64,000 nt of DNA from an uncultured Alphaproteobacteria bacterium (GCA_944392225.1 CALXWB010000003.1:8723-72722); one strand, 5' to 3'; counted from the stretch's first letter, positions 20,290-56,752 are shown. Numbers and translations are program-made. The notes: generated by a model not told the origin, from the sequence alone.

Positions 20290-23046
20290 CTAGTGGGCTT
20301 GGGTCCAGTCATCACCGATACCGACTTCGGCAACGAAAGGCACGGCTAAATCCACCACGCTTTCCATAGTCTTTTTTATCATCGCGGCGGCTTTTTCCAC
20401 CTCATCTAACGGTGCTTCAAAAACCAACTCATCATGCACTTGCAAGAGCATCTTGGTTTTATATCCGCCCTCTTCCAGTTCTCTTTGCACAGCAATCATC
20501 GCGCGTTTGATGATATCTGCCGCACCGCCTTGAATCGGCGCATTGATGGCGGCTCTTTCAGCATTGGCAACAATGCGTTTGTTTTTATCATTAATGCCCA
20601 TAATCGAGCATTTGCGCCCAAATGGCGTCAGCACATAGCCGTATTGATGGGCAAACATGGTGGTTTGTTCCATATATTTTTTAATCTCGGGCATTTGGGC
20701 AAAATATGCATCAATATATCTCTTTGCTTCTTCATTGCTGACATCAATTTGTTTGGCCAAGCCATATTGCGAAATTCCGTAAACAATGCCAAAATTGATG
20801 GCCTTGGCATGGCGGCGCATATTGGCATCCACCTCGTCATAAGGCACGCCGAAAACTTTTGAAGCGGTGGCGGCGTGAATGTCTATGCCTTGCTCAAAAG
20901 CGTGTTTCAAGCCCTTAACATCAGCCACAGATGCCAGCAAGCGGAGCTCAACCTGCGAATAGTCGGAAGCAATTATCTTGCAGCCCTCTTTGGCGATAAA
21001 GCACTCACGAATTTTTTTGCCTTCTTCACTTCTAATCGGGATATTTTGCAAATTGGGGTTGGACGAAGCCAAACGACCGGTGTTGACCACGGTTTGGTTA
21101 AAAGTGGTATGCAAGCGACTATCTTTATCCAGCAAGTTAATCAAAGCATCGGTATAAGTGGATTTGAGCTTGCTAAAGCCGCGCCAATCTAAAATTTTGG
21201 CAGCCAGCAAATTGCCCTCGGCGGCCAGATTTTCCAGCACATCAGCCCCGGTTTGCCAAGCCCCGGTTGCGGTTTTCTTACCCTTGGCACCGAGTTTGCC
21301 AAACAAAATTTCGCCGATTTGTTTGGGTGAGCCAATGTTAAACTCTTCTCCGGCAAGTTTATAAATTTCTTGCTCGTATTCTTTCAATTTTTTATCAAAC
21401 TCTTGGCTCAGATTCATGAGTTTTTGTTTATCAACCATCACACCTTGTTTTTCCATTTTTTGCAAAATGGCAATCAACGGGCGGTCATAGTTCTCATAAA
21501 CGGCAATTTTTTTCTCTTTAACCAATCTTGGCTTCAAAACATGATACAAGCGCAAGGTGATATCGGCATCTTCGGCAGCATAGTCCAACGCCTTGTCCAA
21601 AGGCACATAGTCAAAGGTGATTTTATCTTTGCCGGTGCCGCAAACATCTTCATAATGAATGGTTTTATATGACAAAAACTTTTCTGCCAGCTCATCCATG
21701 CCGTGCCCATGCTCGGAGCTATCCAAGTCATAAGATAAAACAGCCGTGTCTTCTATTGGGAAAATCTCGTTTTCTTCGCCAATCACTTGGGCAAAGAAGT
21801 GCATATCAAATTTGATATTATGGCCGATTTTCAAAATGCTCTTATCGGTCATAATCGGGCTCAAATATTTGGCAACAGTAGCAAAATCAAGCTGTTTTAT
21901 CTCATAACTTTCCGAAGCAAACAAATCACGATTTTGGGATTTATGCTTCAAAGGCACATAACAAGCCACGCCCTCTTCCACCGCCATGGAAAAACCGACG
22001 ATTTTATCAAAAGTGGGATTGATGCCCGTGGTTTCGGTATCAAAAGCAAAGACGCCTTTATTTCTTATCGTATCTGCCCAGCGCTTTAAGCCTTGCTCAT
22101 CTTGCACCAGCTCATAGTGCTTTTCCACCTCTTTAAATACGGTGTTCAGGTCTTGATTTTCCTCATCTGGCAGGCTGTTGCATCTGACCTCTGCCCAGCG
22201 CTGGAGTCTTGGTTTTAAGCTCACAAAACCATATAAATCGACAAACTTTTCAATATCTTCAAACACCGGTTTGTGGCAAGCGTAAGCCTCAATTTGTTTT
22301 TCAACCGGGACATCTTTTTTCAAGGTGACAAGCTGCAAAGAAATGAGCGCATTTTCTTTATTTTCCAGCAAGGTCTCTCGTCTTTTGTTTTGCTTAATCT
22401 CACCGGCGCGGTCCAACACCTCTTGCAGGGAGCCAAACTCGTTCACCAACTGCGCCGCGGTTTTTAAACCAATACCGGGGACGCCGGGGACATTATCAAT
22501 GCTATCTCCCGCCAGAGCCTGAACATCGACCACTTTATCGGGATAAACGCCGAATTTTTCTTTCACATCTTCGGGAGAGAAAAACTTATCTTTCATCGGG
22601 TCATAAAAGCGGACGCCGGGGCGAATCAGCTGCATTAAATCTTTATCCGCCGAAACCACAACCACCTCATAGCCTTTATTCAAGGCTTGGTCGGCATAGG
22701 TGGCAATCAGGTCATCGGCCTCATAGCCTTCCATCTCCAGTTGGTTCAAGTTCAAAGCCTTAACAGCTTCTCTTATTATCGGAAATTGGGGAATCAGCTC
22801 TTCGGGAATCTCTTTTCGGGTGCCTTTATAGTCAGGAAAAAAATCGTTGCGGAAATTTTTTCTTTTCGCATCAAAAAGCACCAAAGAATAATCACAAGGG
22901 ATATTCTGCGTCAGCCGCAAAAACATATTGGTAAAGCCATAAACGGCATTGACCGGCGTGCCATCCGGCGCGGTTAAATTAGGAATCCCGTAAAAAGCTC
23001 TGAAAATATAGCCCGAGCCATCAACCAAACAGACCGTTTTTGTCAT
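20290..23046 (-). CDS. polA: DNA polymerase I
   Basis: 5'-3' exonuclease, 3'-5' exonuclease and polymerase motifs (…RRHAKAINFGIVYG…, …QVHDELVFE…). 918 aa. Confidence 0.95.
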   Translation of the reverse strand: MTKTVCLVDGSGYIFRAFYGIPNLTAPDGTPVNAVYGFTNMFLRLTQNIPCDYSLVLFDAKRKNFRNDFFPDYKGTRKEIPEELIPQFPIIREAVKALNLNQLEMEGYEADDLIATYADQALNKGYEVVVVSADKDLMQLIRPGVRFYDPMKDKFFSPEDVKEKFGVYPDKVVDVQALAGDSIDNVPGVPGIGLKTAAQLVNEFGSLQEVLDRAGEIKQNKRRETLLENKENALISLQLVTLKKDVPVEKQIEAYACHKPVFEDIEKFVDLYGFVSLKPRLQRWAEVRCNSLPDEENQDLNTVFKEVEKHYELVQDEQGLKRWADTIRNKGVFAFDTETTGINPTFDKIVGFSMAVEEGVACYVPLKHKSQNRDLFASESYEIKQLDFATVAKYLSPIMTDKSILKIGHNIKFDMHFFAQVIGEENEIFPIEDTAVLSYDLDSSEHGHGMDELAEKFLSYKTIHYEDVCGTGKDKITFDYVPLDKALDYAAEDADITLRLYHVLKPRLVKEKKIAVYENYDRPLIAILQKMEKQGVMVDKQKLMNLSQEFDKKLKEYEQEIYKLAGEEFNIGSPKQIGEILFGKLGAKGKKTATGAWQTGADVLENLAAEGNLLAAKILDWRGFSKLKSTYTDALINLLDKDSRLHTTFNQTVVNTGRLASSNPNLQNIPIRSEEGKKIRECFIAKEGCKIIASDYSQVELRLLASVADVKGLKHAFEQGIDIHAATASKVFGVPYDEVDANMRRHAKAINFGIVYGISQYGLAKQIDVSNEEAKRYIDAYFAQMPEIKKYMEQTTMFAHQYGYVLTPFGRKCSIMGINDKNKRIVANAERAAINAPIQGGAADIIKRAMIAVQRELEEGGYKTKMLLQVHDELVFEAPLDEVEKAAAMIKKTMESVVDLAVPFVAEVGIGDDWTQAH

Positions 23047-23080
23047 TTTTCCTCCTGCTTGTGCCAGTAGGATTTAAAAC

Positions 23081-23281
23081 TTATTCACCAATGGATAAAA
23101 AGAATGAGCGTTCCAAATTGTCTACCGAGCATAAATCGGTTTTATATACATCTTCATAATCTTCAACATATGCTGAAAGCGCCGATAAGGCAACATCATT
23201 TATGCTTTGACCGCTTTTCTCAGCAATTTTTGCCAGTTTTTGCATTAAATCTTCATCAATTTTAAGAGAAATGTCAGTCAT
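23081..23281 (-). CDS. Ribbon-helix-helix (CopG/ParD-like) small DNA-binding protein, orphan
   Basis: MTDISLKIDEDLMQKLAKIAEKSGQSINDVALSAL… beta-alpha-alpha RHH pattern. No adjacent toxin gene. Confidence 0.45.
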   Translation of the reverse strand: MTDISLKIDEDLMQKLAKIAEKSGQSINDVALSALSAYVEDYEDVYKTDLCSVDNLERSFFLSIGE

Positions 23282-23346
23282 AAAATGTTCCTTAATCTTT
23301 TGATGTTATAACTTTGTGTTATCTATGAACAATGTTTTAAAATATT

Positions 23347-25182
23347 TTGCGAATCGGCGCAAGAATAAAAAAGGGGCGAATCGTGGCAAAAGCTAAGAAA
23401 AAAACAACAAAAAGAAAAAAAAGAGAGTCAAAACAAAAACTTAAGAATCGGCATATTCTCTTAAAAATTTTTGCCGTCTTGGTGATAACTTTTTTTGCTT
23501 ATATCGGTTATTGTATCATCACCCTTCCTGATATTAACGAAGCTATTAATCGCACACGCCAGCCCTCCACCACCATCGCCGCCGAAAACGGCAATGAAGT
23601 CACCACTTTCGGCAGTGTTTATTCCGAGGTGATTACCGTGGACGAGCTGCCGCCTTATGTGGTTGACGCCATTCTCTCCACCGAAGACAGGCGCTTTTAT
23701 TATCATTTCGGCTTTGATGTCATTTCCTTTACCCGCGCCATGCTGACCAATATGTTTCTCGGGCGCTATGCGCAAGGCGGCAGCACCATCACACAGCAAG
23801 TGGCCAAAAACCTCTTTTTGACACCAAACAAAAATATCAAACGCAAAACTCAAGAATTGCTCCTGGCTTTCTGGCTCGAATATAAATTCACAAAAGACCA
23901 AATTTTGGCACTTTATCTCAACCGTGTTTATTTGGGCGCCGGAACTTACGGTATTGAAGCGGCCAGCCAAAAATATTTTCAAAAATCTTCTCGCGACCTT
24001 AACCTCAAAGAAGCCGCCGTGATTGCAGGTATGCTCAAAGCTCCTTCCCGCTATAACCCCATTGCCTCGGAAAAACGCGCGGTTGAGCGCGCCAAGGTGG
24101 TGCTCCAAAATATGGTGGATAATGACAAAATCACGCAAATGCAAGCGGACAACGCACTCAAAATGCGCCTTGGACCGGAAAAGAAATATAACGTGAAAGA
24201 TGCCATGCATTTTGCCGATTGGGTTTATAATGACGTTAACTCTTATATCGGCGAACGCACGAATGATATTTATGTTTTGACCACGCTTGACCAAGATTTG
24301 CAGCAAGCCGCATCGGATATTTTGGAAAGCACCATCAAAAAATATGCCGCCTCGCGCAATGTGCATCAAGGTGCAATTGTGGTGATGGACAAAAGCGGCG
24401 GGGTTAAAGCCATGGTCGGCGGCGTGGATTATGCCAAAAGCCAGTTCAACCGCGCCACACAAGCTTTGCGCCAACCGGGCTCATCTTTCAAGACTTTTGT
24501 TTATCTCACCGCTTTGCAAGAAGGATTTTCTCCCGATGACAAAATTATGGACTCTCCTCTTTCCATCGGCAAGTGGAAGCCGGAAAATGCTGACCGCAAA
24601 TATCACGGCGAAGTAACACTCACCCAAGCGTTGGCTCATTCTTACAACTTGGCCACAATTCATCTTTCGGAAATGCTTAACCGCAGCAACATCATTAAAA
24701 ACGCTCAGCGCATGGGTATTACCACCGAGATTGAAAATTCTCCGGCTTTGGCACTCGGCACCTCGGAGGTGAAAGTGATTGATATGGCCACGGCTTATAC
24801 TTCGCTTGCCAACGGCGGCTATGCGGTTATCCCTTATGCCATTAAGGAGATTTACAGCAAAGACGGATATCAGCTCTATCAACGTAATATCGATGATGAA
24901 AACCAAATTTTGGATGAGCGTGATGTGGAACAACTGACCCAAATGTTGCAAGAAGTTATAATGTCCGGCACGGGCAAACGCGCACGAATCAACGGATTTG
25001 CCGCCGGGAAAACCGGCACCAGCCAAGATAACCGCGATGCTTGGTTTGTGGGCTATACCGATAACCTTGTGGCTGCTGTTTGGCTCGGAAATGATGATAG
25101 CTCGCCGATGAAAAATGTTTCCGGCTCAAACCTGCCGGCTGAAATTTGGCAGAAAATCATGTCTGCGGCACAAAAAATTTAA
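23347..25182 (+). CDS. Class A penicillin-binding protein (GT51 transglycosylase plus transpeptidase)
   Basis: GT51 motifs (EDRRFYYHFG, GGSTITQQ) and transpeptidase motifs (SSFKTFVY, KTGTS). Lys-rich cytoplasmic N-tail followed by a TM segment. Confidence 0.9.
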   Translation: MRIGARIKKGRIVAKAKKKTTKRKKRESKQKLKNRHILLKIFAVLVITFFAYIGYCIITLPDINEAINRTRQPSTTIAAENGNEVTTFGSVYSEVITVDELPPYVVDAILSTEDRRFYYHFGFDVISFTRAMLTNMFLGRYAQGGSTITQQVAKNLFLTPNKNIKRKTQELLLAFWLEYKFTKDQILALYLNRVYLGAGTYGIEAASQKYFQKSSRDLNLKEAAVIAGMLKAPSRYNPIASEKRAVERAKVVLQNMVDNDKITQMQADNALKMRLGPEKKYNVKDAMHFADWVYNDVNSYIGERTNDIYVLTTLDQDLQQAASDILESTIKKYAASRNVHQGAIVVMDKSGGVKAMVGGVDYAKSQFNRATQALRQPGSSFKTFVYLTALQEGFSPDDKIMDSPLSIGKWKPENADRKYHGEVTLTQALAHSYNLATIHLSEMLNRSNIIKNAQRMGITTEIENSPALALGTSEVKVIDMATAYTSLANGGYAVIPYAIKEIYSKDGYQLYQRNIDDENQILDERDVEQLTQMLQEVIMSGTGKRARINGFAAGKTGTSQDNRDAWFVGYTDNLVAAVWLGNDDSSPMKNVSGSNLPAEIWQKIMSAAQKI

Positions 25183-25202
25183 CTTGTTAAAGGAAAATTA
25201 TC

Positions 25203-25340
25203 ATGAGAAAAATTCTTTGGGGCTTTGTGGTTATTTTTGTTTTCTTTGCCATTGTTTTTTCCGTTGCTTTTATCTTGGATGAAAAAAGCGATAATGTCAT
25301 TATTTCTGCCGAAGAAACACCACAAATTTTTAACAACTAA
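25203..25340 (+). CDS. Putative 45-aa small membrane protein
   Basis: ATG 7 nt after an aggaaa RBS-like sequence. Single hydrophobic helix (ILWGFVVIFVFFAIVFSVAFIL). Not in the ORF track (<60 aa). Confidence 0.3.
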   Translation: MRKILWGFVVIFVFFAIVFSVAFILDEKSDNVIISAEETPQIFNN

Positions 25341-25447
25341 AAAAGTTTGATTAAATGCAAAAAAAATAGTGCTTTTCTGTTCAAAATTATTATATATAAT
25401 GAGCAGAAATGTTTTGTTGATTTTTAGTTTATTTATAAGGAAAAATA

Positions 25448-26980: not shown

Positions 26981-26994
26981 GTAAAGGAAAAATT

Positions 26995-28248: not shown

Positions 28249-28270
28249 TATAAATTATGGGAAAAAAAAC

Positions 28271-29563: not shown

Positions 29564-29581
29564 TATTTTGAGGAGCTTTTT

Positions 29582-31236: not shown

Positions 31237-31306
31237 ATTTTTTTCTTTTATCAATGGCTTTTTTGTGATATTATCTTTTTGTTGCAACGGATGAAAAGAT
31301 AATGCT

Positions 31307-31891: not shown

Positions 31892-31893
31892 AA

Positions 31894-33630: not shown

Positions 33631-34869
33631 ATGATGCGCGACAATTATATTGATATCAACAAACTGATTAAAAGCAAAAATGTTTTAAACCTTTTTAACG
33701 TGGTGGAAAATCATGGCGGAGCTTTGCGTTTTGTCGGTGGTGCCGTGCGTGACACGCTGGCCGGGCTGGAAGGTTTTGACCTGGACTTGGCCACGGATTT
33801 GAGCCCGGATGAGCTGGTTGAAGCCTGCGAAGAAGAAGGTTTGAAGACCATCCCTTTGGGTATTAAATTTGGCACTGTCGGCGTTTTGATTGATGATAAG
33901 GTCTTGGAAGTCACCTCTTTGCGCAAAGATATCAAAACCGACGGGCGCCATGCCGAGGTGGAATTTACCACCGATTGGGAAACCGATGCCGGACGCCGCG
34001 ACTTGACCATTAATGCCGTCTATGCCGATGAAAAAGGCAATGTCTTTGACTATTATAACGGTATTGACGATCTGGAAAAAGGTGTGGTGCGCTTTATCGG
34101 CAACCCGACCCAGCGCATTAAGGAAGATTATCTCAGAATTTTGCGCTTTTTCCGATTTCATTCCATTTTTGCCAAAACACCCATCAACCAAAAGGCTTTG
34201 GAAGCTTGCAAAGAAAACTCCGAAGGATTGCAAAATCTTTCCATGGAAAGAATCCGCGATGAAATGTTCAAAATTTTGCTCACGCCTCATGCCGCTGAAA
34301 CTCTTAAAATTATGGCCGATAATGAAATTTTGAGCTATGTGCTGCCGGTGCCGAAAGCTGAAAATATTGCTTGTTTGGATTTTTTGGATAAAAAACTCAA
34401 CCAACACAAAATGCAAAAAAATGCTCTGGCGCGTTTGTTTATTTTATTTGCACCCGACGAGGCTTTTGCCAATAATATTGCCACGCGCATGAAGTTTAGC
34501 AAAAAAGAAAAACAAGATTTTGTTGATTTGGCTCGGATCAAGGTTGATTTATCTGACTTTGCCGATGAACAGAAACTCAAAAAACTTATCTATCTTTACG
34601 GACGTGATTTTGTGCGCAATAAGTTCATGATTGAGCAAGCTTTGCAACAGAAAATTTTGCCTGATTTTGATGCTATTCTCAATTGCATTTTGACGTTCAA
34701 TCCCCCTGCTTTTCCGCTACGCGGGCAAGATATTATCAACGCCGGCTTTAAGGGCAGTCCGCATATCGGCGATATTCTTGATAGCTTGGAAGAACTTTGG
34801 CTTGAAAGTAATTTTGCTCTTTCTAAAGAAGACTTACTTGCCCGTTTGCAACAGCTCAAAACAGCTTAG
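33631..34869 (+). CDS. cca: CCA tRNA nucleotidyltransferase / poly(A) polymerase family
   Basis: GGAVRD…DxD nucleotidyltransferase head motifs. Confidence 0.85.
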   Translation: MMRDNYIDINKLIKSKNVLNLFNVVENHGGALRFVGGAVRDTLAGLEGFDLDLATDLSPDELVEACEEEGLKTIPLGIKFGTVGVLIDDKVLEVTSLRKDIKTDGRHAEVEFTTDWETDAGRRDLTINAVYADEKGNVFDYYNGIDDLEKGVVRFIGNPTQRIKEDYLRILRFFRFHSIFAKTPINQKALEACKENSEGLQNLSMERIRDEMFKILLTPHAAETLKIMADNEILSYVLPVPKAENIACLDFLDKKLNQHKMQKNALARLFILFAPDEAFANNIATRMKFSKKEKQDFVDLARIKVDLSDFADEQKLKKLIYLYGRDFVRNKFMIEQALQQKILPDFDAILNCILTFNPPAFPLRGQDIINAGFKGSPHIGDILDSLEELWLESNFALSKEDLLARLQQLKTA

Positions 34870-37659: not shown

Positions 37660-37757
37660 GCAACGGAGGACGTTGGGTTGATTTGTCGCCAACCCGGTCA
37701 GGTCCGGAAGGAAGCAGCCGTAACGATCTTAATCAAGGCTATATGTCCTCCACCAGT
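37660..37757 (+). ncRNA. ffs: Signal recognition particle RNA (4.5S/ffs)
   Basis: Contains GGUCAGGUCCGGAAGGAAGCAGCC, identical to the E. coli 4.5S domain IV core. The 5' GGAGGAC pairs with the 3' GUCCUCC. Conserved position immediately upstream of dnaX. Confidence 0.8.
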
Positions 37758-40635: not shown

Positions 40636-42387
40636 CTAGAACAGGCGGAGAACGGCTTGGCTTGCTTGTGAAGCGAGTGAGAGGGAGTTAATTGCCAATT
40701 GTTGTTGCGTTTGCAGGGAGAGCATGTTGGCGGACTCTTCATTCATATCAGCCAATGTTAATTTATCCGCACCTTCTTCCAGAACATTAATCAAATTATC
40801 GGTAAAAGTTTCGCGCTCGGTGATAATCGAATAATAGTTACCGAGTTTGGTTGAGGCCGAGCGCAAGGTGTTTTTTGCGTTAGATAATTGTTCTATGGTT
40901 TTTTGCACATCATCTGCCGTTAGCCAATCGGCCGTTATTAAACCGATTTTATCGGAGCTCAAATCCACACCCATCACATCCAAAGTGGCGCTGCGATTTT
41001 CATTAAAAATCACTTTCAAATCATCTGCTTGAAGAAGATTAACGCCCTTGTATGAACTGTCTTTAATCAAAGAATCATATTGCGACAAAGTTTTGTTGAA
41101 ACTTGAAGTATATTTATCTTCCACCTTGCCTCTTAGGCTATTATCTCCCTTGAAATCAAAATCTTCCCAGCTATATTCCGTTTCGGTAAAATCTGCAAGA
41201 TTTTTGCGAATGTAATCTGCCGTAATAAATATATGGGGATCTGGTTTAACATTTCCTGTTAATGTGATATCTTTTGAGGCAACAAAACTTCCTTGATCTT
41301 GATAATTCAACCTTGCGCCGGTTTCAAAAATCATTGCTCCGGGGGTTGAATCGCTTTGCAATATGGACATTATATTATACCCCATCATATTTACTTCTGA
41401 GCCGGATTTAAAAGTTATATTGCCTTTTTGGGTTGTTACATCAAAAGCAAAAGTTCCTTTCGTATAAATATTCAATTTTCCATAGATATTGGCATTGTTA
41501 CTAATTGCATAATTATATAATGAGCCCTCATTTCTAATGGTTGTTTCGCCATATATGTCAACGACCGAAGATGCAGATGAATCAATGGCATAGATATAAT
41601 CATTTTCGGAAAGATCAAAAAAGTTTTTGCCGTCTATTTTTGTATTGTTTGAACCTAAGGCATATAAACCTCTTATATTGGTTTTGATGTCAATATTTTG
41701 CGCAAGCGTATTATTCGCACTGTTCAAATAAATACATTGCCCTTCTCCGTTTGACTTAACATCAATTGACAGATCTGAAATGATATTATTATCAGCACTT
41801 GAGCTTATTGCAGAAAAAGATCCTGTCCCATCATATTCAAACTTAAGCGAGGAGAATTTGTCGGTGTCGGAGTCAAATTTGCCATAATAACCAATACCCA
41901 CCAGTTTTTGATTGTCTTTTAAGGTGATGTTTTGGTCGCCCATGTCAATCTCGCCATAAATGCAAATCTCTTCTTTGCCGGCCTTGACGGCATTAATTAA
42001 TTCTTCTTTGCTGCTGACAACCGCACCGTTTTCTCCGACCAGGCTTTCAAAATAGCTTTTTTCTGGGATTTTTAAGTCTTCCAAAGCCGAATTGGCCGTG
42101 GCTTGCGCAATGGCTAAAAGCTCTTCCGCTTTTTCTATCCCTTCAGTGGCGGCTTTGATTGTTTGCACCGATTGGCCCATCGAATCAAGCAATGCGGACA
42201 AATCCTCGGCTCGGTTATTAAGCGAGCTGGCGGTGTAATAGGAACTGGGGTTATCTATGGCGGAATTAACTTTTAAGCCGGTGGATAAGCGTAATTGCGT
42301 GCTGTCCTGCAACTTTGAGATTTGTTGCAAGCTTAACAAATTGCTGCGCATGGACGCTGTTAAACTTATTTCTGACATATCCACCAA
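40636..42387 (-). CDS. Giant flagellin-domain protein 1 (flagellin N- and C-terminal D0/D1 helices with a large beta-helix-like central insert)
   Basis: The N-terminus (…ISLTASMRSNLLSLQQ…QLRLSTGLKVNSAIDNPSSYY…) and C-terminus (…LADMNEESANMLSLQTQQQLAINSLSLASQ…LRLF) match flagellin termini. The central ~350 aa is N/S/T/G/I-rich and repeat-like. Confidence 0.8.
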   Translation of the reverse strand: MVDMSEISLTASMRSNLLSLQQISKLQDSTQLRLSTGLKVNSAIDNPSSYYTASSLNNRAEDLSALLDSMGQSVQTIKAATEGIEKAEELLAIAQATANSALEDLKIPEKSYFESLVGENGAVVSSKEELINAVKAGKEEICIYGEIDMGDQNITLKDNQKLVGIGYYGKFDSDTDKFSSLKFEYDGTGSFSAISSSADNNIISDLSIDVKSNGEGQCIYLNSANNTLAQNIDIKTNIRGLYALGSNNTKIDGKNFFDLSENDYIYAIDSSASSVVDIYGETTIRNEGSLYNYAISNNANIYGKLNIYTKGTFAFDVTTQKGNITFKSGSEVNMMGYNIMSILQSDSTPGAMIFETGARLNYQDQGSFVASKDITLTGNVKPDPHIFITADYIRKNLADFTETEYSWEDFDFKGDNSLRGKVEDKYTSSFNKTLSQYDSLIKDSSYKGVNLLQADDLKVIFNENRSATLDVMGVDLSSDKIGLITADWLTADDVQKTIEQLSNAKNTLRSASTKLGNYYSIITERETFTDNLINVLEEGADKLTLADMNEESANMLSLQTQQQLAINSLSLASQASQAVLRLF

Positions 42388-44676: not shown

Positions 44677-44677
44677 A

Positions 44678-45454: not shown

Positions 45455-45461
45455 CTAAAGC

Positions 45462-46241: not shown

Positions 46242-46322
46242 AACCTTACTCTTTCAAGTTAATTAACATGTTTAATCGTATATTATGACGCCAAATTTCA
46301 GAAATCAACTAACTTATGAATT

Positions 46323-47209: not shown

Positions 47210-47210
47210 T

Positions 47211-48164: not shown

Positions 48165-48266
48165 GTCTTCACCATTTATGTTGTTTCAAATTTATTATAA
48201 TATCTTCTATTTTAGTAAATATATCGTTACTTTCAACAAAATAAAGGTCTTGTTTGACCAAGACCT

Positions 48267-48575
48267 TTATTTTATTAATTTTATTTCAGAAGTTGCTTTA
48301 TCATAAACCTTTTCCGTGGCGGTTTCTATTCCCGGCTTGCTAAACTCTATGATATCAAAGTAGCTTAACAAAAACACCAAAAAAGCTATCGTCAAAACAA
48401 AAATCAATATTCTCCAGGCAATTTTGGCAATTAAATACAAAATCATTATTCCGCCCGTTATTGCGGCAGCATAAGCCAGCTTTTTGACCAACTCCTCATC
48501 ATCAAAGCCAACCGATGCCACCAACAGCACGGCAACAATAAAAATCGTTATCAAAAATTTTTTTATATATTGCAT
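48267..48575 (-). CDS. Small hypothetical membrane protein
   Basis: 102 aa with three predicted hydrophobic helices. Confidence 0.45.
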   Translation of the reverse strand: MQYIKKFLITIFIVAVLLVASVGFDDEELVKKLAYAAAITGGIMILYLIAKIAWRILIFVLTIAFLVFLLSYFDIIEFSKPGIETATEKVYDKATSEIKLIK

Positions 48576-48576
48576 C

Positions 48577-49560
48577 TTAATCTACAACTTTTATTGAAAA
48601 TTTTTGATTGCTTGCTTCTGAATTTGTATTTTTAAATACAGTGTTTACGCTATTGTTTGTATTTTGTTTATTTTTGTTTTCCAAAATACTCAATATCATA
48701 TCCAATTCTGCTGCAGAAGCATATTGCAAAGTAACCTTACCGCCGCCTTGCTTGCTCGGCGTGATTTTGATTCTCAAGCCAAGCTCTTTTCTCAAATCAT
48801 TTTCAATTTCTTCAATATCTTCATCAATCGGCCTTGGATTCTTTGCTTTTTTAGGCTCTTTTTGTTTTGAGACCAAATCTTCTACCTGGCGCACGTTCAA
48901 ATCTTTGGCAATGATTTGCTTGGCCAAAGCCACAGCATTGTCCAACCCTACCAAGGCTCGCGCATGTCCGGCTGAGATTTTGTTTTCTTTTACCATCTCT
49001 TGAACTTCTGCCGGCAGACTCAACAATCTCAACGTGTTGGCAATTTGGCTTCTTGATTTTCCGACAACCTGGGCTAGTGCTTCCTGCGTGTGCGAAAATT
49101 CATCCATCAGTCTTTTATATCCTTCTGCCTCTTCTATGGCTGAAAGATTTTCTCTGAGCAGGTTCTCAATCAAGGCAACTTCCAAAGCCTCTTTGTCAGA
49201 AAAATCTTTCACTATTACAGGCACTTCTTTCAAACCGGCTTCTTTTGAAGCTCTCCAGCGTCGTTCTCCGGCAATAATCTCATATTTATCGCCTTGCTTT
49301 CTCACCAACAGCGGCTGCAAAACACCTTTTTCTTTTATTGATTCTACCAAAGAATCTAAGGCGGCTTTATCAAACTCGGTTCTTGGCTGATATTTTCCGG
49401 GAACAAGTTTATCAATATCCACCCTGTCACCGGTTTTTGCTTCTTTGCCGGCTTCATTTCTACCCGGCTTATCTGACAAAACATCTAAGCCCAAATCTTC
49501 TCCGCCCAAAAGAGCTCCTAAGCCACGACCCAAATTTTTTTTCTTGTTTTCTTCTAGCAT
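48577..49560 (-). CDS. parB: Chromosome partitioning protein ParB
   Basis: ParB box GERRWRA, HTH region, and C-terminal dimerisation domain. Confidence 0.93.
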   Translation of the reverse strand: MLEENKKKNLGRGLGALLGGEDLGLDVLSDKPGRNEAGKEAKTGDRVDIDKLVPGKYQPRTEFDKAALDSLVESIKEKGVLQPLLVRKQGDKYEIIAGERRWRASKEAGLKEVPVIVKDFSDKEALEVALIENLLRENLSAIEEAEGYKRLMDEFSHTQEALAQVVGKSRSQIANTLRLLSLPAEVQEMVKENKISAGHARALVGLDNAVALAKQIIAKDLNVRQVEDLVSKQKEPKKAKNPRPIDEDIEEIENDLRKELGLRIKITPSKQGGGKVTLQYASAAELDMILSILENKNKQNTNNSVNTVFKNTNSEASNQKFSIKVVD

Positions 49561-50333
49561 GCCAATAATTCCTTTTCTCTTTTCAAAACTTCACCCGTTA
49601 AACTGATATATGCTTGTGAGCCCGGACATTTAAAATCATATATTAAAACCGGCTTGCCATGTGACGGAGCTTCCGAGATTTTTACATTTCTCGGAATCAC
49701 GGTTTGATAAACCTTTTTGCCAAAGAAGTTGCGCACATCTTCTTCAACCTGTTGGGTTAAATTGTTTCTTCTGTCATACATGGTCAAAACAACGCCTTGC
49801 AGCTCTAAATCCGGATTAAATACTCTTTTGATTTGGTTAATGTTGCGAATCAAGTCTGTTATTCCCTCCAAAGCCAAAAATTCGCATTGCAGAGGAACAA
49901 TAACGGCATTGGCCGCAACCAAAGCATTGATTGTTATCAAGCTCAAAGACGGCGGACAATCTATCAATATATAATCATAATTAACAGCCTCTTCCTTCAG
50001 CGCATTTTTCAAGGCAAATTCTCTTTTCTCCACATCTACCAATTCTATTTCGGCACCCGCCAAGTCTTCTGACGACGGAACAATGGAAAAGTTCGGAATC
50101 TCTGTCCAAACCACAGCTTCAGACAATTTTGCTTCACCAATCAGCACCTCATAAGAAGATATCATTCTGCCTCTTTTATTCACACCCATTGAGGTTGAGG
50201 CATTGCCTTGCGGATCAAGGTCAATCAGCAGCACCTTTTTGCCGGCCGCAGCCATGGCTGTTGCCACATTGACCGTTGTTGTTGTTTTTCCAACACCACC
50301 CTTGCGATTTGCAATTGCTATGATTCTTGGCAT
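49554..50333 (-). CDS. parA: Chromosome partitioning ATPase ParA
   Basis: Deviant Walker A KGGVGKTTT. Confidence 0.93.
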   Translation of the reverse strand: MPRIIAIANRKGGVGKTTTTVNVATAMAAAGKKVLLIDLDPQGNASTSMGVNKRGRMISSYEVLIGEAKLSEAVVWTEIPNFSIVPSSEDLAGAEIELVDVEKREFALKNALKEEAVNYDYILIDCPPSLSLITINALVAANAVIVPLQCEFLALEGITDLIRNINQIKRVFNPDLELQGVVLTMYDRRNNLTQQVEEDVRNFFGKKVYQTVIPRNVKISEAPSHGKPVLIYDFKCPGSQAYISLTGEVLKREKELLAC

Positions 50334-50957
50334 TTATTTTTCTCCTTTTTTCAACAGATGACTGATGACTAAAATTTTTCCTTCTTCACTGGTTTCACTG
50401 TCAAAAATTTGACAATCAAAAGACCAATGTTTTTTTGCTTCTTCAATTTCTTCAGCATATTTTTTGCCTTTAGGAAAAATGCAGGTTGTTTTTGTTGAAG
50501 CAAAGTTTTTGGTATAATTAAACAGATTATCTAAAGAGGTCATGGCGCGTGACGTTATCACATCGACCTTTTCTTTTTTTATATTTTCGATTCTTTGATT
50601 GATGATTTCAACATCAACTTGGCAAATTTTTTTCACTTCGTTTAAATACAGTGTTTTTTTGGTTATACTTTCAATCAAGCTCACTTTTAAATACGGTGTT
50701 TTTTCTTTTGCCATTATGGCCAACACCATACCCGGAAAGCCTGCTCCAGAACCAAAGTCCACCAGGGTTTTGGCCTCTTTCGGAATGTATTTAAACAACT
50801 GTGCTGAGTCAACAAAATGTCTGTTCCAACAATCTTCCAAAGAAGAGTTGCTCACCAGATTAAACTTGTTTTGCCACTCTCTCAACAAAGATTCGTAGGT
50901 TTTTAATTGCTCAAATGTTTCACGTGAAACATTGTATTTTTCCATAAAATTTTTCAT
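50334..50957 (-). CDS. rsmG: 16S rRNA (guanine527-N7)-methyltransferase RsmG (GidB)
   Basis: SAM-binding motif DFGSGAGFPG. Conserved mnmG-rsmG-parA-parB order. Confidence 0.9.
   Translation of the reverse strand: MKNFMEKYNVSRETFEQLKTYESLLREWQNKFNLVSNSSLEDCWNRHFVDSAQLFKYIPKEAKTLVDFGSGAGFPGMVLAIMAKEKTPYLKVSLIESITKKTLYLNEVKKICQVDVEIINQRIENIKKEKVDVITSRAMTSLDNLFNYTKNFASTKTTCIFPKGKKYAEEIEEAKKHWSFDCQIFDSETSEEGKILVISHLLKKGEK
50916..50931. promoter_or_regulatory. parS: parS centromere site (perfect TGTTTCACGTGAAACA)
   Basis: 16-bp perfect palindrome inside the 5' end of rsmG, encoding VSRET. Confidence 0.85.
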
Positions 50958-51076
50958 AAATTATTTATAAAAAATTTTTATACTTTTTAAAATACAAAAA
51001 CTCGACTTATAAACACATATTTTATAAGAAAATAAAAAGAATCTAAAAACAAAGAGTTAAACCATATTTTTTGAAT

Positions 51077-51901
51077 CTATTTTTTAAGAATTTCCAAACC
51101 AACTCTGTTTTTACAGTTGAATGATTGCAACAAATTTTCTGTTTTTTCAAAATATTGCCCCAACATGGAAACAGAATGTGCATCGTCACTCAAAAGTGTG
51201 GGAACACCTCTGCGACAAAGCTCTTTTAACATCCAATCGCACGGATGCTGCATATTAATCCTATTAAAACCGCTCGTGTTAACCTCAAACGGCATTCTTG
51301 TTTCATCAAGAGCTTCAATAATTTTCCAGCGGCTCGCTTCCAGATTCGGAAATTCGGGAATTTTGATAACACAATAATCAGCATGTGCCAAAAAGTTGAA
51401 ATATCCGCTCTTTATGGTGTTGACAACATTGTCCCAGTGTTGCCGGACAAGCTTGTTAAAATCTTCTTTGCCTAAACTCGGCGGGAGCAAATCTAAGTGA
51501 TATATATTGCACAGATAACTTTCATCAGGCTTGAAAATGAAATGATTTGAACCAATAATATAGTCAAAATCCAGCTGTTTTAACATTCTTTCAAAGCCAT
51601 TTCTCCAGGCAGCCGAAGGAAAAAAATCGACTTCCGCACCAACATAAACTTTTATTTTGTGCTTTGCCGCCGCTGTTCTTATCTCTTCCAATATATACTT
51701 GAACATTGTTACGGTTTTTTGTTCATCGTTCATAAACATCGGATGACTATGCTGCATGTTTGGGTGCCAGCACAAATGATTGGATATACCTATGGCCTCA
51801 AAGCCTAGCTTTTCTGCTTGAGAAATCATTTCTTCCGCCGTGTTTTGACCGTCAAATATACCCAAGGCGTTGGTATGGCAATGTAATGTGAACTTTTGCA
51901 T
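51077..51901 (-). CDS. PHP-domain (histidinol-phosphatase-like) metal-dependent phosphoesterase
   Basis: MQKFTLHCHTNA… His-rich PHP motifs. Start overlaps the upstream murA stop in a TAATG arrangement. Confidence 0.7.
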   Translation of the reverse strand: MQKFTLHCHTNALGIFDGQNTAEEMISQAEKLGFEAIGISNHLCWHPNMQHSHPMFMNDEQKTVTMFKYILEEIRTAAAKHKIKVYVGAEVDFFPSAAWRNGFERMLKQLDFDYIIGSNHFIFKPDESYLCNIYHLDLLPPSLGKEDFNKLVRQHWDNVVNTIKSGYFNFLAHADYCVIKIPEFPNLEASRWKIIEALDETRMPFEVNTSGFNRINMQHPCDWMLKELCRRGVPTLLSDDAHSVSMLGQYFEKTENLLQSFNCKNRVGLEILKK

Positions 51902-53319
51902 TATAACTCCGCTATTGATTCTATTTCTCTTCCTTCTTTTGAATATGAGATATCTATGCCCAAATCTTGTAAATTTTTGATTAAGTTTGGATAGCCGCGC
52001 AAAGCAAAGCCTGGTTCTTGTATCAAGCTTTTTCCTTCTGCCGTTGCGGCTAAAATTATTGTGCCCATGGTGCCGCGCAAATCCGTGCCTTTGGCCTCTG
52101 CCGCATGAAATGTTGATGGCTTGATTGTTATATACAGATTTTTTATGGTTCCTTGCTGGCCGCTGTTCACATCAATCTGTTCATATTGGCTTTGCAGACC
52201 AAATTTTGCCATCTCCGGCAAATGAGCACTCCTTCCGGCCCATATTAAATCTGATATAACGGACGGGCTTTTGGCTTGAGCTAAAATAGGAGTCCATATC
52301 TGGTGCAAGTCTGTTTCAAAACCGGGGAAGGGTGTTACCTGCATGATGAATCCGTCATATGGTTTGATCTTTCTAAAATCTAAATATAGTTTTTTCTTAT
52401 CTGCCGAATAGTATATACCTCTGCAAAACATTCTTTCCAGCTGTTTCAGCCAAGGGGAACAATGCTCAAAATTTATTCCATCTAATTCAACAGCTCCTCT
52501 GGTTGACAAGGTGAGCAGGGCATAGGTTGCCGCTTCCAGCCTATCGGGAATCACTTCAAAATCAACACCTTTAAGCAAACTTCTGTTTTTGCCGTCATAA
52601 ATAAGGCCGGTTCTCTCGTTTCCGATTATTCCCAAACCCATTTTTTGCAACATGGCAATCAAGTTTGAAACTTCCGGCTCTAGGGAAGCATTATACATCA
52701 TCTTACATTCATTTGAGCCAACCACGGACAACAGCCAGTGAAATGTAGCGCCGTGCGAGGCTTTAAATGTGGTATACACAGGGCAGAAGTCTGACTTTTC
52801 TTTCTTTGGCAGTGTAAAACATAAATAAGAATATTTTTCGTTTTCTTTTGTTTCAATACTAATTGTGGCACCAAAAACGGTTTTTATCAGTTCTTCATGA
52901 AAATCTGTCGGGCGTTTTCCTCCAAAAGAACATCCTCCGGGCAGGCAAACTTTCAGACTATCAAACTCTTTGGTGCGTGAAAATCGGGCTAACAAGGAGC
53001 CCCAAAGATAATAGCTGGCTCTAAAATGTGCCGCTTGGTGAGAAATCTCGTTTTTAACAATTTTTGCGGCGTGTAGCTTCAATATTCTTTTTTGCGGATC
53101 ATATTTAACATCAACGCCAATATCTTTCATAATATGTCCCATTTCCAAAACATCGGTGATATATGGTACATTACGTAGCGTGACAACGTCATCTGTTAAA
53201 ACGGCAGCTGCCATTAAACCTAAAATGGCATTTTTTGCACCGCTTATCTTAATGTCTCCGGAAACGGAATTACCGCCATTGATTGTCAAACTATCGGGAA
53301 TAAAGAAATTTTCAGTCAT
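51901..53319 (-). CDS. murA: UDP-N-acetylglucosamine 1-carboxyvinyltransferase (MurA family; long form, 472 aa)
   Basis: ISGAKNAILG… and active-site LPGGCSFGGKRPTDFH (MurA Cys115 loop). Confidence 0.8.
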   Translation of the reverse strand: MTENFFIPDSLTINGGNSVSGDIKISGAKNAILGLMAAAVLTDDVVTLRNVPYITDVLEMGHIMKDIGVDVKYDPQKRILKLHAAKIVKNEISHQAAHFRASYYLWGSLLARFSRTKEFDSLKVCLPGGCSFGGKRPTDFHEELIKTVFGATISIETKENEKYSYLCFTLPKKEKSDFCPVYTTFKASHGATFHWLLSVVGSNECKMMYNASLEPEVSNLIAMLQKMGLGIIGNERTGLIYDGKNRSLLKGVDFEVIPDRLEAATYALLTLSTRGAVELDGINFEHCSPWLKQLERMFCRGIYYSADKKKLYLDFRKIKPYDGFIMQVTPFPGFETDLHQIWTPILAQAKSPSVISDLIWAGRSAHLPEMAKFGLQSQYEQIDVNSGQQGTIKNLYITIKPSTFHAAEAKGTDLRGTMGTIILAATAEGKSLIQEPGFALRGYPNLIKNLQDLGIDISYSKEGREIESIAEL

Positions 53320-53384
53320 TTTGCCCTCCTTGTTAGAAGAATAATCTATTATAGACGAGGGCTATTTAATTTTTGGTAAATCAG

Positions 53385-53420
53385 AAAAAGAAAAGAGGCG
53401 GAATTTTGTTTTCGCCTCTT
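53385..53420 (-). terminator. Rho-independent terminator after mnmG
   Basis: gaggcg…cgcctc hairpin followed by a T-run on the minus strand. Confidence 0.55.
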
Positions 53421-53431
53421 CAAATACAGTG

Positions 53432-55279
53432 TTATTTTTTAACATAACCCAAAATAGCCGTGATGGCGGCAGGGGTTACTCCCGGAATGCGTGAAGCCTC
53501 GCCGATGGTTGAAGGTTTGACCTTGCTCAATTTAGTAACCATCTCTCGCGATAAGCCGCCGATTTTGCCATAATCAATATCTTCACGCAATTTGAGGTTT
53601 TCATCTTTTTTGAAGACCTCAATATCAGCCATCTGGCGTTTGATATAACCCGAATAGCGTGCTTCAATCTCAATGGCTTCATAAACAACATTCGGCATAT
53701 CAACCAACTCGGGGAAGAGTTGATTGATTGTTTCACGTGAAACGTCTTCATAACTCATCAGATTAAAAGGTGTTCTCTTAGTGCCATCATGCTTGACGTT
53801 CAAGCCCAAAGCATCTATCTCTTTATAGCTGGTTTGCAGGGTGTTACAAAGCTCGGTATAATGCTTAATCTGCTCTTTTTTAGATTTAAATACACTGTAT
53901 CTATGTTCTCCGACACAACCAATGTCATGACCTTTTTCAGTCAGACGACGATCGGCATTATCCGCACGCAGGAATAAACGATATTCCGAGCGAGAGGTGA
54001 ACATACGGTAAGGTTCATCCACACCTTTGGTGATTAAATCATCAATCATCACACCGATATAAGCTTCACTTCTATCTACCACAAATTCTCGACCTTTACC
54101 TTCAGCATACAGAGCCGCATTAATACCGGCAACCAAACCTTGCGCGGCGGCTTCTTCATAGCCGGTGGTGCCGTTGATTTGTCCAGCCAAGAATAAGCCC
54201 GGGACTTTTTTCACCGCTAAACGGTTATCCAACTCTTGCGGATCAACATAGTCATATTCAATGGCATAGGCAAAGCGCAAAATTTCTACATCTTCCAAAC
54301 CTTCCATCGTGTGAATGAAAGCATCTTGCACATCTGCCGGCAAAGATGTGGAAATGCCGTTCGGATAAACCACATCAGTATTCAAACCTTCCGGTTCCAA
54401 GAAAATTTGATGACTGGTTCTATCGGCAAACTTGACCAACTTATCTTCAATGCTCGGGCAATATCTTGGCCCAACACCGGTAATCAAACCCGAAAACAAC
54501 GCACATTTATCAAAATTATCACGAATAATCTTATGCGTTCTTTCATTGGTATGAGTGATATAGCACTGAATCTGCGGGTTGGTGATTTTATCCGTCAAAT
54601 ATGAAAAAGGAACGGGCGGATTGTCGCCGTCTTGGGTGGCCAGTTTTTCCCAGTGGATGGTTTTGCCGTTCAGACGGGCAGGGGTGCCGGTTTTCAAACG
54701 GCCGACTTTTAAACCAAGTTGCTTTAAATACGGTGTTATACCAGTGCAGCTTTCTTCACCAATACGGCCTCCAACCGTGGCTTGGTGCCCTACAAACATA
54801 ACCCCGTTCAAAAATGTGCCGGAAGTTAAAACCGTGGCCTTGGCTCTGATTTCTTCTCCATTTGCCAAAATAACACCTTCAACCTGATTATCTTTAATAA
54901 TCAAACCTTCAACCGCGGCTTCAATAATATCCAAATTCTCTTGCTCACGTAGAGCCTCAAGCATATATTTTTTATACAGCTCTCTATCCGCCTGAGCGCG
55001 CGGACCTCTTACGGCCGGACCTTTGGAAGCATTGAGCATACGAAACTGAATGCCGGCTTTGTCAATCACACGACCCATCAAGCCGTCAAGCGCGTCCACC
55101 TCCCTGACCAAATGTCCTTTGCCCAAACCACCAATGGCCGGATTGCAAGACATGGCACCAATAGTATCAATATGGTGGGTCACCAAAGCGGTTTTGGCGC
55201 CGGTTCTCGCTGCTGCGGCACAAGCTTCACAGCCGGCGTGTCCTCCGCCAACCACAATTACATCGTAAATTTTATTCAT
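53432..55279 (-). CDS. mnmG: tRNA uridine-5-carboxymethylaminomethyl modification enzyme MnmG (GidA)
   Basis: FAD-binding GGGHAGCEA. 615 aa. Confidence 0.95.
53729..53744. promoter_or_regulatory. parS: parS centromere site (TGTTTCACGTGAAACg, 15/16)
   Basis: Near-perfect parS palindrome inside the 3' part of mnmG. It also encodes VSRET. Confidence 0.8.
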
Positions 55280-55359
55280 TATTTATAAGGCCTTAAAAAA
55301 TTTTTATTCAATCTTGCCGGCATTATAATCAAAAAAATTTAGAAATCAATAAAAGGCAT

Positions 55360-55386
55360 AAAAAAAAGAGCGCTTGAAACGCTCTT
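55360..55386 (-). terminator. Rho-independent terminator after mnmE
   Basis: agagcg-cttgaaa-cgctct hairpin with a T-run on the minus strand. Confidence 0.6.
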
Positions 55387-55408
55387 TCTTTAATTTTTGC
55401 TTCTACAT

Positions 55409-56752
55409 CTATTTGCCGATGCAAAAGTCGCCAAAGATTTTATCTAAAATCTCATCAACCTCAATTCGGCCGGTGATTTTACCTAAAGCGCGGGCGGCGA
55501 GGCGGATATCTTCCGCAGTCAGCTCAATTTCTTTATTAAAACCAAAATTTTGCAGATTTTCTAAAACATCTTGCAAAGCTTCACGATAGCGGCTTCTTGT
55601 AATCAAAAGGTTGGAGTTTGACGTAAAGCGCTCTTGTATATTTTTTGAAATGGCTTGCAAGAGTTTATCCACGCCTTGTTTTTGTTTGGCCGATATAACC
55701 AAACAGCCTGATTTTTCTAGCTGTGAACATTGTTCAGAAGTTAATTTATCACATTTATTTGCTACAAACAAGGCTTTGTTTTTTAAAGAATCTTTTATTT
55801 TATCAAAGACATGAACACTGTCTACCGAAGAATCAAACAAGCAAATGACCAAATCGGCATCATGAATTTTGCCATAAGCAATATCAATGCCTTTTTTCTC
55901 AATTTCTTCTTCGGTTTCACGCAGACCGGCGGTATCGGTAAACATAACAGGATAACCATTCAAATCCAAATGAACATCTATGGCATCACGCGTGGTTCCG
56001 GCAATGTCTGAGACAATCACGGCATCTCTTTTGACAATGGCATTAAGCAAACTTGACTTGCCGGCATTGGGCGCACCAACAATAGCTACCCTAAAACCTT
56101 CACGCAAACGCTCACCGATTGAATCACCGTTCAAGTGGTCTTTTATCTCGTTTTCAAGTTTAAATACAGTGTTCTGCATATTATCAATAACCGATGGCGG
56201 AATCTCCTCATCGGGAAAATCGATAAAAGCTTCTAAATGCGCCAAGATCTTAACCAACTCGGCACGCCAGCTCTCGTATAAATTCTTCAACCCGCCTTCC
56301 ATTTGGCGCATGGCATATTTTTGCTGCTCAGAGGTTTCGGAATCAATCAAATCAGCCAAACCCTCAGCTTCGGTCAAATCCATTTTGCCGTTATAAAAAG
56401 CGCGTTTGGAATATTCTCCAGGTTCGGCCATGCGAAAACCCTCAATTTGGCTTAAATTATTCATCACCGAAGCAATCACAGCTTTGGAACCATGGGTTTG
56501 AAACTCAACAATATCCTCCCCCGTGAAAGAATGCGGCGCCTTGAAATATAAAACCAAACTTTGATCCAAGCTCTCAGTCTTATCCAAATTGTGCAACTTG
56601 GCAAAATATGCATAACGCGGTTTGATGCTCTTGACATCAATATCGGTCATCAACTCAACGGCTTTTAAAGCCTCATTTCCCGAAACTCGAATCACGGCCA
56701 CGCCGGACTTTCCGTAAACGGTGGACAAGGCATATATGGTTTGGTTTGTCAT
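55409..56752 (-). CDS. mnmE: tRNA modification GTPase MnmE (TrmE)
   Basis: G-domain GAPNAGKSSLLN and C-terminal CIGK. Confidence 0.95.
   Translation of the reverse strand: MTNQTIYALSTVYGKSGVAVIRVSGNEALKAVELMTDIDVKSIKPRYAYFAKLHNLDKTESLDQSLVLYFKAPHSFTGEDIVEFQTHGSKAVIASVMNNLSQIEGFRMAEPGEYSKRAFYNGKMDLTEAEGLADLIDSETSEQQKYAMRQMEGGLKNLYESWRAELVKILAHLEAFIDFPDEEIPPSVIDNMQNTVFKLENEIKDHLNGDSIGERLREGFRVAIVGAPNAGKSSLLNAIVKRDAVIVSDIAGTTRDAIDVHLDLNGYPVMFTDTAGLRETEEEIEKKGIDIAYGKIHDADLVICLFDSSVDSVHVFDKIKDSLKNKALFVANKCDKLTSEQCSQLEKSGCLVISAKQKQGVDKLLQAISKNIQERFTSNSNLLITRSRYREALQDVLENLQNFGFNKEIELTAEDIRLAARALGKITGRIEVDEILDKIFGDFCIGK

Follow-up and report, generated by a model that had tools for sequence, protein, structure and literature searches.

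The stretch analyzed here, referred to as the window, comprises 64 kb from an uncultured Alphaproteobacteria bacterium (GCA_944392225.1, CALXWB010000003.1:8723-72722) and harbors parB, parA, rsmG, mnmG, mnmE and rho next to the probable origin of replication (oriC). In this region an asymmetric 15-bp motif, TTTAAATACRGTGTT, recurs in a single orientation close to two parS sites, and a further copy is located in polA. The coordinates of the motif copies, their host genes and the surrounding elements are summarized in Table 1. Loci from related genomes are designated by L numbers.

Motif copies in the window

The window was searched for the motif on both strands with up to two mismatches. In total, six exact copies and two near-copies, with one and two mismatches, were detected, all of them on the + strand, while 100 dinucleotide-preserving shuffles of the window contained no copy of TTTAAATACRGTGTT. 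Two additional two-mismatch matches at 15643 (+) and 47913 (-) correspond to the chance level (0.41 expected per window) and were not counted. Sub-words of the motif of at least 10 nt are present in the window only within full copies, and in an unbiased count of repeated 13-mers the motif and parS alone were prominent.

Seven of the eight copies are located in 7.5 kb that also contain both parS sites, 3-10.6 kb from oriC. Read on the minus strand, the copies encode NTVFK in one frame and TPYLK or TLYLN in another; the third frame contains a TAA stop codon. A preliminary description of the window had listed these copies with their coordinates, shared strand, minus-strand host genes and peptides in two frames, and had called them far from chance. 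All of this was confirmed by the pattern search, by Pfam and by translation, and the chance figure given there is right in its order of magnitude.

Most positions recur in related genomes. The polA copy, 37 kb from oriC, has counterparts at the same polA position in L035 and L105, and the 45-bp pair in rsmG is kept in L067, L106, L128, L278, L279 and others. The two-mismatch variant TTTAAATACACTGTA in mnmG is found at the orthologous position, about 155 bp from parS, in L121, L127, L128, L130, L131 and L279. In parB, copies lie in the N-terminal region in L069 and L113 and in the tail in L127 and L130. The copy at the mnmG stop codon adjoins the mnmG terminator hairpin, and copies linked to stop codons were also found in relatives, just past the mnmG stop in L131 and at the mnmE stop in L127 and L130.

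Table 1. Motif copies, host genes and origin-region elements of the window; the last row refers to the related locus L130.
Feature	Position	Strand	Remarks
polA	20290-23046	-	Assigned by Pfam
Motif copy TTTAAATACGGTGTT, exact	22132-22146	+	polA inter-domain linker, approximately codons 301-305, NTVFK
Array host block	48577-56752	-	parB, parA, rsmG, PHP-domain gene, EPSP-synthase-like gene, mnmG, mnmE (Pfam)
parB	48577-49560	-	Assigned by Pfam
Motif copy, exact	48631-48645	+	Non-conserved parB C-terminal tail, NTVFK; position species-specific
rsmG	50334-50957	-	Assigned by Pfam
Motif copy, exact	50641-50655	+	rsmG, TLYLN; origin-distal half of 45-bp pair
Motif copy, exact	50686-50700	+	rsmG, TPYLK; other half of 45-bp pair
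parS, exact TGTTTCACGTGAAACA palindrome	50916-50931		Inside rsmG 5' end; position kept in relatives
Motif copy TTCAAATACAGTGTT, one mismatch	53419-53433	+	Covers last two bases of mnmG stop codon
mnmG	53432-55279	-	Assigned by Pfam
Second parS, one mismatch	53729-53744		Inside mnmG 3' part
Motif variant TTTAAATACACTGTA, two mismatches	53885-53899	+	mnmG, 156 bp from parS
Motif copy, exact	54723-54737	+	mnmG codons 181-186, TPYLK; best-conserved site
mnmE	55409-56752	-	Assigned by Pfam
Motif copy, exact	56159-56173	+	mnmE codons 194-198, NTVFK; orthologous in 19 species
Probable oriC	58907-59492		587-bp AT-rich spacer between rho and coaE
DnaA boxes in oriC spacer	59172, 59197, 59324, 59425
TTAA-N7-TTAA CtrA-type boxes in oriC spacer	near 59092, 59230, 59437
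L130 motif copies with concerted T12-to-C variants	14115, 15261, 16099, 19017, 21108		Positions within L130

The spacer between rho and coaE combines a GC-skew minimum with DnaA boxes and several CtrA-type TTAA-N7-TTAA boxes, and for this reason it was assigned as the probable oriC. In the six relatives checked, the GC skew switches at the same spacer. No motif copies were found in the oriC spacer of the window. The gene order parB-parA-rsmG-...-mnmG-mnmE-rho / oriC / coaE-dnaQ is the alphaproteobacterial arrangement; dnaA-dnaN-recF (5390-9397, with 5390-6868 also marked separately) are located about 52 kb from oriC. Due to terminator-like hairpins 3' of mnmE and of mnmG, the array zone comprises several transcription units.

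Copy number and position relative to parS

For comparison, 21-kb stretches centered on rho were taken from nine further species. Between mnmE and parB, the nine species have 3-9 copies each (up to two mismatches). Eight genomes together contain 49 copies with no more than one mismatch. For 46 of these a parS site is located within 3 kb, and the median distance to parS is 984 bp, so that the clustering with parS and the origin claimed in the preliminary description holds beyond the window. The array is bound more tightly to parS, with its median of 1 kb, than to oriC. Outside the parS zone, one exact copy was found in 48 kb of the window, and the far side of oriC contains one exact copy in 85.5 kb summed over the nine species.

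Genes of the zone that vary between species, namely a GNAT gene as well as HD and PHP paralogs in tandem, also bear copies, so that the placement rule is positional and not gene-specific. The genes rho and parA, encoding the most conserved proteins of this region, never bear a copy.

The motif is therefore low-copy, with about 10 copies per genome, and local. These numbers bear on the idea of an uptake or packaging signal, or of a word spread by molecular drive through biased DNA transfer, comparable to the uptake signal sequences (USS) of Pasteurellaceae, the DNA uptake sequences (DUS) of Neisseriaceae or pac sites. Like the motif, USS and DUS are exact words of 10-15 nt that are overprinted on coding regions in different frames and shape the peptide. 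They occur, however, about once per kb genome-wide, in hundreds or thousands of copies, whereas all of the roughly 10 motif copies are local. In the collection scan described below, the clade accounts for only about 15% of the matches listed, which does not fit a USS-like density. No viral contig was enriched for the motif either, all viral matches listed being single chance ones. Such a signal is consequently regarded as very improbable.

Distribution in related genomes

A collection with one genome per species (185,579 species) was scanned for the motif, yielding at least 120 stretches, which were used as a sample. By our own arithmetic, about 2,200 chance matches are expected in the 596 Gb of this collection, and most of the 120 matches listed are lone chance matches in unrelated phyla. 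About 17 of the 120 belong to uncultured gut or rumen metagenome-assembled genomes (MAGs) labeled 'Alphaproteobacteria bacterium' or 'Rhodospirillaceae' with 27-50% GC. In these MAGs the motif is located again in mnmE, mnmG, rsmG, parB or polA, often with several co-oriented copies per 8-kb stretch. Among the matches listed, there was no cultured alphaproteobacterium. The motif thus seems to be specific to one clade of uncultured Alphaproteobacteria. Human and animal gut metagenome assemblies contain contigs whose encoded proteins are identical to those of the window.

The three loose matches in a Piscirickettsia locus (L008) lie in unrelated contexts on mixed strands and are attributed to chance. 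No paper was retrieved when full texts were searched for 12-mers of the motif, and within the limits of the literature library searched the motif is undescribed.

Conservation at the DNA level

Orthologous sites in mnmE, mnmG, rsmG and polA were aligned codon by codon in up to 18-19 related genomes. At the mnmG site, ATA ACA CCG TAT TTA AAR is essentially invariant in 18 species, with Leu encoded by TTA, Pro by CCG and Tyr by TAT in 18 of 18 cases each. In the flanks, equally conserved Gly, Arg and Leu residues use four to six codons, with five different codons at flanking Leu positions. At the mnmE site, GTA TTT AAA is common to 19 species, and the same pattern of conservation was observed for the rsmG pair and the polA linker site. 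For degenerate codons with a conserved amino acid, the commonest codon accounts for 242 of 253 cases (96%) inside the motif and for 418 of 659 (63%) outside. The motif is under purifying selection at the DNA level, and peptide conservation is not what maintains it.

This agrees with the claim made beforehand that conservation acts on DNA rather than on protein: two frames are used, and synonymous sites are frozen inside the motif and drift in the flanks. A comparison of orthologous genes, proposed in the same description as a check, gave this result in up to 18-19 species. A conserved peptide in one frame only, named there as the case that would speak against the idea, was not seen, since copies occur in two frames, in spacers and across a stop codon. 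Together with the shuffles, these observations leave practically no probability to chance copies or a conserved peptide motif, an explanation in favor of which nothing could be named beyond the AT-richness of the word.

In several human-gut relatives, the seven codons that precede the site in mnmE were converted into a second in-frame copy without a change in length. The double site reads ..DTVFKLE-NTVFKL.., with the copies 21 bp apart (L254 4875/4896, L128 13227/13248, L129 14304/14325, L269 70/91). As mnmE codons were overwritten here, the DNA word dictates the peptide and not the reverse. The 6 nt following the motif were duplicated as well, which suggests templated conversion and not independent point mutations.

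A motif matrix was built from 119 copies. Positions 1-6, 8, 9, 13 and 14 are essentially invariant, position 10 is R, and positions 7, 11, 12 and 15 vary somewhat. Position 16 is almost never G, and no conservation was observed further out. The motif can be written as TTTAAATAC-R-GTGTT; the next base is any but G, and the one after it is mostly T.

Orientation of the copies

On the parS side, 53 copies in the nine species share one orientation and a single copy has the other; the latter is a two-mismatch match at chance level. Coding constraint fails to explain the shared orientation because each orientation has two open frames. On the far side of oriC, five copies were found in the same absolute orientation and one in the opposite one, with about one expected by chance in total. 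The far-side copies include an exact one inside ddl of L129, sense to the gene. In L096, five to six copies surround a GNAT-kinase gene, with the motif on the G-rich strand. A look-up of homologs of this gene placed them on the far side, 9.4-10.8 kb from oriC, in L281 and L282. The four copies clustered there, including two exact ones, agree in absolute orientation with the parS-side array. On the parS side the motif lies on the C-rich lagging strand; in the L281/L282 cluster and in ddl of L129 it lies on the G-rich leading strand. The orientation of the array is mirrored neither at oriC nor at parS, and one absolute orientation fits all copies that could be placed relative to oriC.

Such uniformity raises the possibility of a polar signal or barrier for a DNA-tracking machine, in which a bound protein, acting like Tus-Ter or CTCF, would stop or slow the replisome, the SMC complex or sliding ParB-CTP clamps from one side only and thereby make the behavior of the origin and centromere directional. 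The strong asymmetry of the site and the 53:1 orientation on the parS side fit this idea, as do the L281/L282 cluster 9-11 kb past oriC and the scattered copies of L129, L130 and L131, which share the absolute orientation; a reader indifferent to orientation would not need it to be uniform. However, outward-moving forks would meet opposite faces of the sites and one of them would be impeded, yet the GC skew looks normally bidirectional. Furthermore, no Tus- or RTP-like candidate was found, several loci (L047, L098) could not be placed relative to oriC, and the far-side evidence amounts to about 10 sites. A polar barrier is thus possible, but unlikely. The related proposal of an orientation-dependent system of cis-elements, in which asymmetric sites across parS and oriC would impose directionality on ParB-CTP sliding, SMC loop extrusion or replication forks, is rated as rather doubtful; if true, it would constitute a bacterial analogue of oriented CTCF-type boundary elements.

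Relative to the host genes, most copies are antisense, and about 90% have the same sense. Sense copies are exact in ddl of L129 and in L047 and have one mismatch in rng of L130; copies in intergenic spacers were found in L098 and L087. The prevailing sense, which extends to the head-on GNAT-kinase gene on the far side, would be expected of an RNA-level element, AACACYGUAUUUAAA in the transcripts, through whose recognition a small RNA or RNA-binding protein would co-regulate mnmE, mnmG, rsmG, parB and polA. The exact 15-nt block is also in line with this, its sole freely variable position being a transition (R/Y) that is compatible with wobble pairing. On the other hand, exact opposite-sense copies lie inside genes (L129 ddl, L047), others lie in spacers (L098), and unrelated inserted genes of the same zone bear copies, which indicates positional logic. 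No conserved flanking structure was observed, the Rfam scan of the window gave only the signal recognition particle (SRP) RNA and the tRNA scan none, and no complementary copy that could serve as a guide gene is present in the window. An RNA element is accordingly considered quite unlikely. Since the array spans several transcription units and includes opposite-sense and spacer copies (L129 ddl, L047, L098, L087), reading at the DNA level is preferred over reading at the RNA level.

Comparison with known sequence elements

The motif was compared with known site families. Like the array, parS sites are few per genome, cluster no further than about 10 kb from oriC, frequently lie inside genes and, in conserved genes, are maintained at the DNA level; in the genomes studied here they are interleaved with the motif copies. 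parS itself (TGTTNCACGTGAAACA) is a near-universal 16-bp palindrome, whereas the motif is asymmetric, co-oriented and restricted to one clade. An identity with parS was rejected, as the motif is non-palindromic and shares at most TGTT(T) with a half-site, and the true parS sites are separate.

RacA-ram, Noc-NBS, MatP-matS, SlmA-SBS and MaoP-maoS are systems in which modest numbers of sites mark one region for a dedicated DNA-binding protein. In concept, the array is similar to them. The ram, NBS, matS and SBS sites are palindromic, spread over hundreds of kb and not co-oriented, and maoS is a non-palindromic single site; the array described here, in contrast, spans about 8-20 kb and is strictly polar.

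Ter sites (Tus/RTP), FtsK-orienting polar sequences (KOPS), SpoIIIE recognition sequences (SRS) and Chi share with the motif their asymmetry and the importance of orientation. KOPS and Chi, genome-wide, and Ter, in the terminus half, are mirrored between the replichores, whereas the array has one orientation and lies at the centromere. KOPS, SRS and Chi are short (5-8 nt) and genome-wide, whereas the motif is a local block of 15-17 nt that is not mirrored at oriC. The form of the motif, asymmetric and co-oriented, would fit Tus-Ter/RTP sites, which are asymmetric, about 20 bp long and act in one orientation. Those occur in two opposed groups flanking the terminus, and this identity was rejected for a single-orientation array at the origin and centromere.

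Plasmid iterons, asymmetric repeats of 15-22 bp in direct orientation near an origin, are another parallel, and occasional tight tandem pairs of the motif exist (21 bp in mnmE, 45 bp in rsmG, 13-19 bp in L087). Iterons differ by their close, regular spacing in non-coding origin DNA beside a rep gene. The motif copies are mostly 0.3-2 kb apart and intragenic, none is located in the oriC spacer and no Rep-like gene is evident, so an iteron identity was rejected.

In a metagenome scan for close motif pairs, the mnmE pair spaced 21 bp was found again in relatives from the human gut. Twelve further pair matches are unrelated tandem-repeat or iteron families that contain the 13-mer and are regarded as products of the search design; they include sequences without long open reading frames (ORFs), a D5-primase virus and a locus without homologs of the window's origin-region genes. 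Iteron-like tandem repeats with a period of 15-42 bp, whose unit begins with TTTAAATACAGTG, were observed in L256 (1433-1499 and 4048-4092), L274, L276 (2914-2960), L252 and L263 (11402-11620). One contig with such repeats has two 22-bp arrays 2.6 kb apart and no long ORFs, and in another a 16-17-bp array adjoins a D5-type primase-helicase gene. The TTTAAATACAGTG-type repeats are judged to be coincidental products of the pattern search.

Several further identities were rejected. In a CtrA box (TTAA-N7-TTAA), the motif would have GTTH as the second half-site and an invariant 'spacer'. To the DnaA box (TTATCCACA) it has no similarity, and genuine DnaA and CtrA boxes are present in the oriC spacer. 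Of the consensus sequences known for IHF, LexA (alpha type), ArcA/OmpR-type repeats, the marbox and the NrdR box, none fits the motif. Promoter-like sigma-70 matches between 48 and 57 kb are not enriched (27, compared to 21.8 expected), and only one overlaps a copy. Terminator-like matches are not associated with the copies, and flanking conservation is lacking. As the -1 frameshift sequence U_UUA_AAG is in frame in none but the TPYLK copies, frameshifting was rejected as a general explanation. The motif is outside every known site family that could be tested.

Further features of the window and of related loci

The window is unusually dense in genes of replication and repair (gyrB, polA, dnaX, recR, radA, dnaQ, fpg and a CcrM-like methyltransferase gene). 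The SRP RNA gene (37662-37757) overlaps the predicted TTG start codon of dnaX (37683), and for this reason the true start of dnaX is probably located further downstream. Two unusually long flagellin-like genes flank the origin region, at 40636-42387 (-; 583 aa) and 60920-62983 (+; 687 aa).

A small cluster at 13040-15653 encodes a protein with a Bro-N domain, a winged-helix protein of the OmpR type (209 aa) for which Pfam gave no receiver-domain match in the N-terminal part, and a 371-aa protein without a Pfam match that appears porin-like by eye. The motif-like sequence at 15643 straddles the start codon of the latter, probably by chance. Among other repeats, a perfect 14-bp palindrome, TCTTTGCGCAAAGA, occurs twice (10231-10244 and 33916-33929) and may be a transcription-factor operator. 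The 13-mers CCATTTTTTGCAA and CATTTTTTGCAAA have three to four copies, distributed over both strands (21453 and 52638 on +, 57129 and 37566 on -).

In relatives, the interval between mnmG and rsmG contains variable tandem PHP-domain paralogs (up to four) and HD/HDOD-domain paralogs (up to three), often together with an EPSP-synthase-like gene (L125 17630-20951, L128 16504-18366, L127, L129, L130, L279, L280; 51077-53319 in the window). The origin-proximal region is rich in HAD, NUDIX, GNAT, zeta-toxin-like kinase, Fic and NERD genes (L281), and in this clade it gives the impression of a hotspot for accessory genes with nucleotide-modifying functions. A gene for a TraG/VirD4-type coupling protein of type IV secretion is located 8-9 kb from oriC in L130 (1-1041) and L279 (1-1616), where it adjoins yacG, the RNase G gene and maf.

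Interpretation and the search for a trans-acting factor

Two related loci give information on the reader of the motif. In L130 (GCA_965646365.1), five of nine copies share the exchange of T12 to C, giving TTTAAATACRGCGTT (Table 1), and in L280 (GCA_965314855.1) every copy is degenerate and none is exact. The concerted change at dispersed sites in L130 implies a co-evolving trans-acting reader.

The reading that we favor, though tentatively and at somewhat less than an even chance, is that the motif copies are sites for a sequence-specific DNA-binding protein working with the ParB-parS partition complex. It is supported by a real motif of low copy number, purifying selection on it at the DNA level, its co-localization with parS, its uniform orientation, its restriction to one clade and the concerted change. 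We infer that the reader is a protein that binds duplex DNA and works with ParB, parS or SMC. The array may act together with the partition complex, for instance to confine or anchor it, as is suggested by their co-localization.

According to this reading, the motif would act in cis as double-stranded DNA and would be recognized with high sequence specificity by a factor peculiar to the clade. Most likely, this would be a protein that contacts about 1.5 helical turns asymmetrically, either as a two-domain monomer or as a head-to-tail dimer. About 8-10 co-oriented sites, located up to about 3 kb from parS, would form an accessory nucleoprotein array beside oriC. Some lineages have an additional small cluster about 10 kb past oriC, and a single site is located in polA. 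The probable role of the array is to assist in confining, anchoring or organizing the centromere region. As its function would require the exact word, selection would freeze this word inside mnmE, mnmG, rsmG, parB and polA and so dictate the local peptide.

Several points weigh against a partition-associated binding site. Protein sites rarely take the form of a near-invariant, sharp-edged block of 15 nt, and recognition by base pairing would account for it as well. Simple binding leaves the uniform direction of the sites unexplained, and the sense shared by about 90% of the copies relative to their host genes would be compatible with an RNA-level or transcription-linked role. The conserved polA site, 37 kb from oriC, lies beyond any plausible ParB zone, and the co-localization with parS could in part be explained by common descent, the sites being located in the same conserved genes. 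In addition, no candidate binder was found in the fully annotated window, which includes dnaA, dnaN, recF, gyrB, polA, dnaX, recR, radA, dnaQ, a CcrM-like methyltransferase gene and many enzymes, or in the loci of relatives, and in neither was an unexplained DNA-binding domain found nearby that tracks the motif.

Three kinds of candidates were rejected as binders. The product of the staphylococcal nuclease (SNase)-like gene 3' of parB has an N-terminus that appears from its sequence to be hydrophobic and membrane-spanning. For the winged helix-turn-helix protein encoded at 13899-14528, the vicinity of the arrays in relatives contains no homolog, and the PHP, HD, HAD and GNAT gene products are enzymes.

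Among the functions proposed in the preliminary description, a site for a protein organizing the origin domain or centromere appears to be the best fit. The uptake or recognition signal was rejected because the motif is low-copy and local and not genome-wide, and a tracking signal of the KOPS, Chi or Ter type, polar with respect to the replichores, was rejected because the orientation is not mirrored at oriC. The array works most like an accessory array of centromere or origin-domain sites, with a polarity that has no clear precedent. To our knowledge, very few cis-elements besides parS are known to organize the bacterial origin and centromere region, and none of them is asymmetric and uniformly oriented.

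The motif is a compact DNA signature for this clade and shows clearly how non-coding information can be overprinted on a coding sequence. Throughout an order-level clade of uncultured gut bacteria it dictates amino acids of essential housekeeping proteins, so the factor recognizing it must be important for fitness. Finding this factor could reveal a new accessory part of ParABS/SMC-driven chromosome segregation or of replication control.

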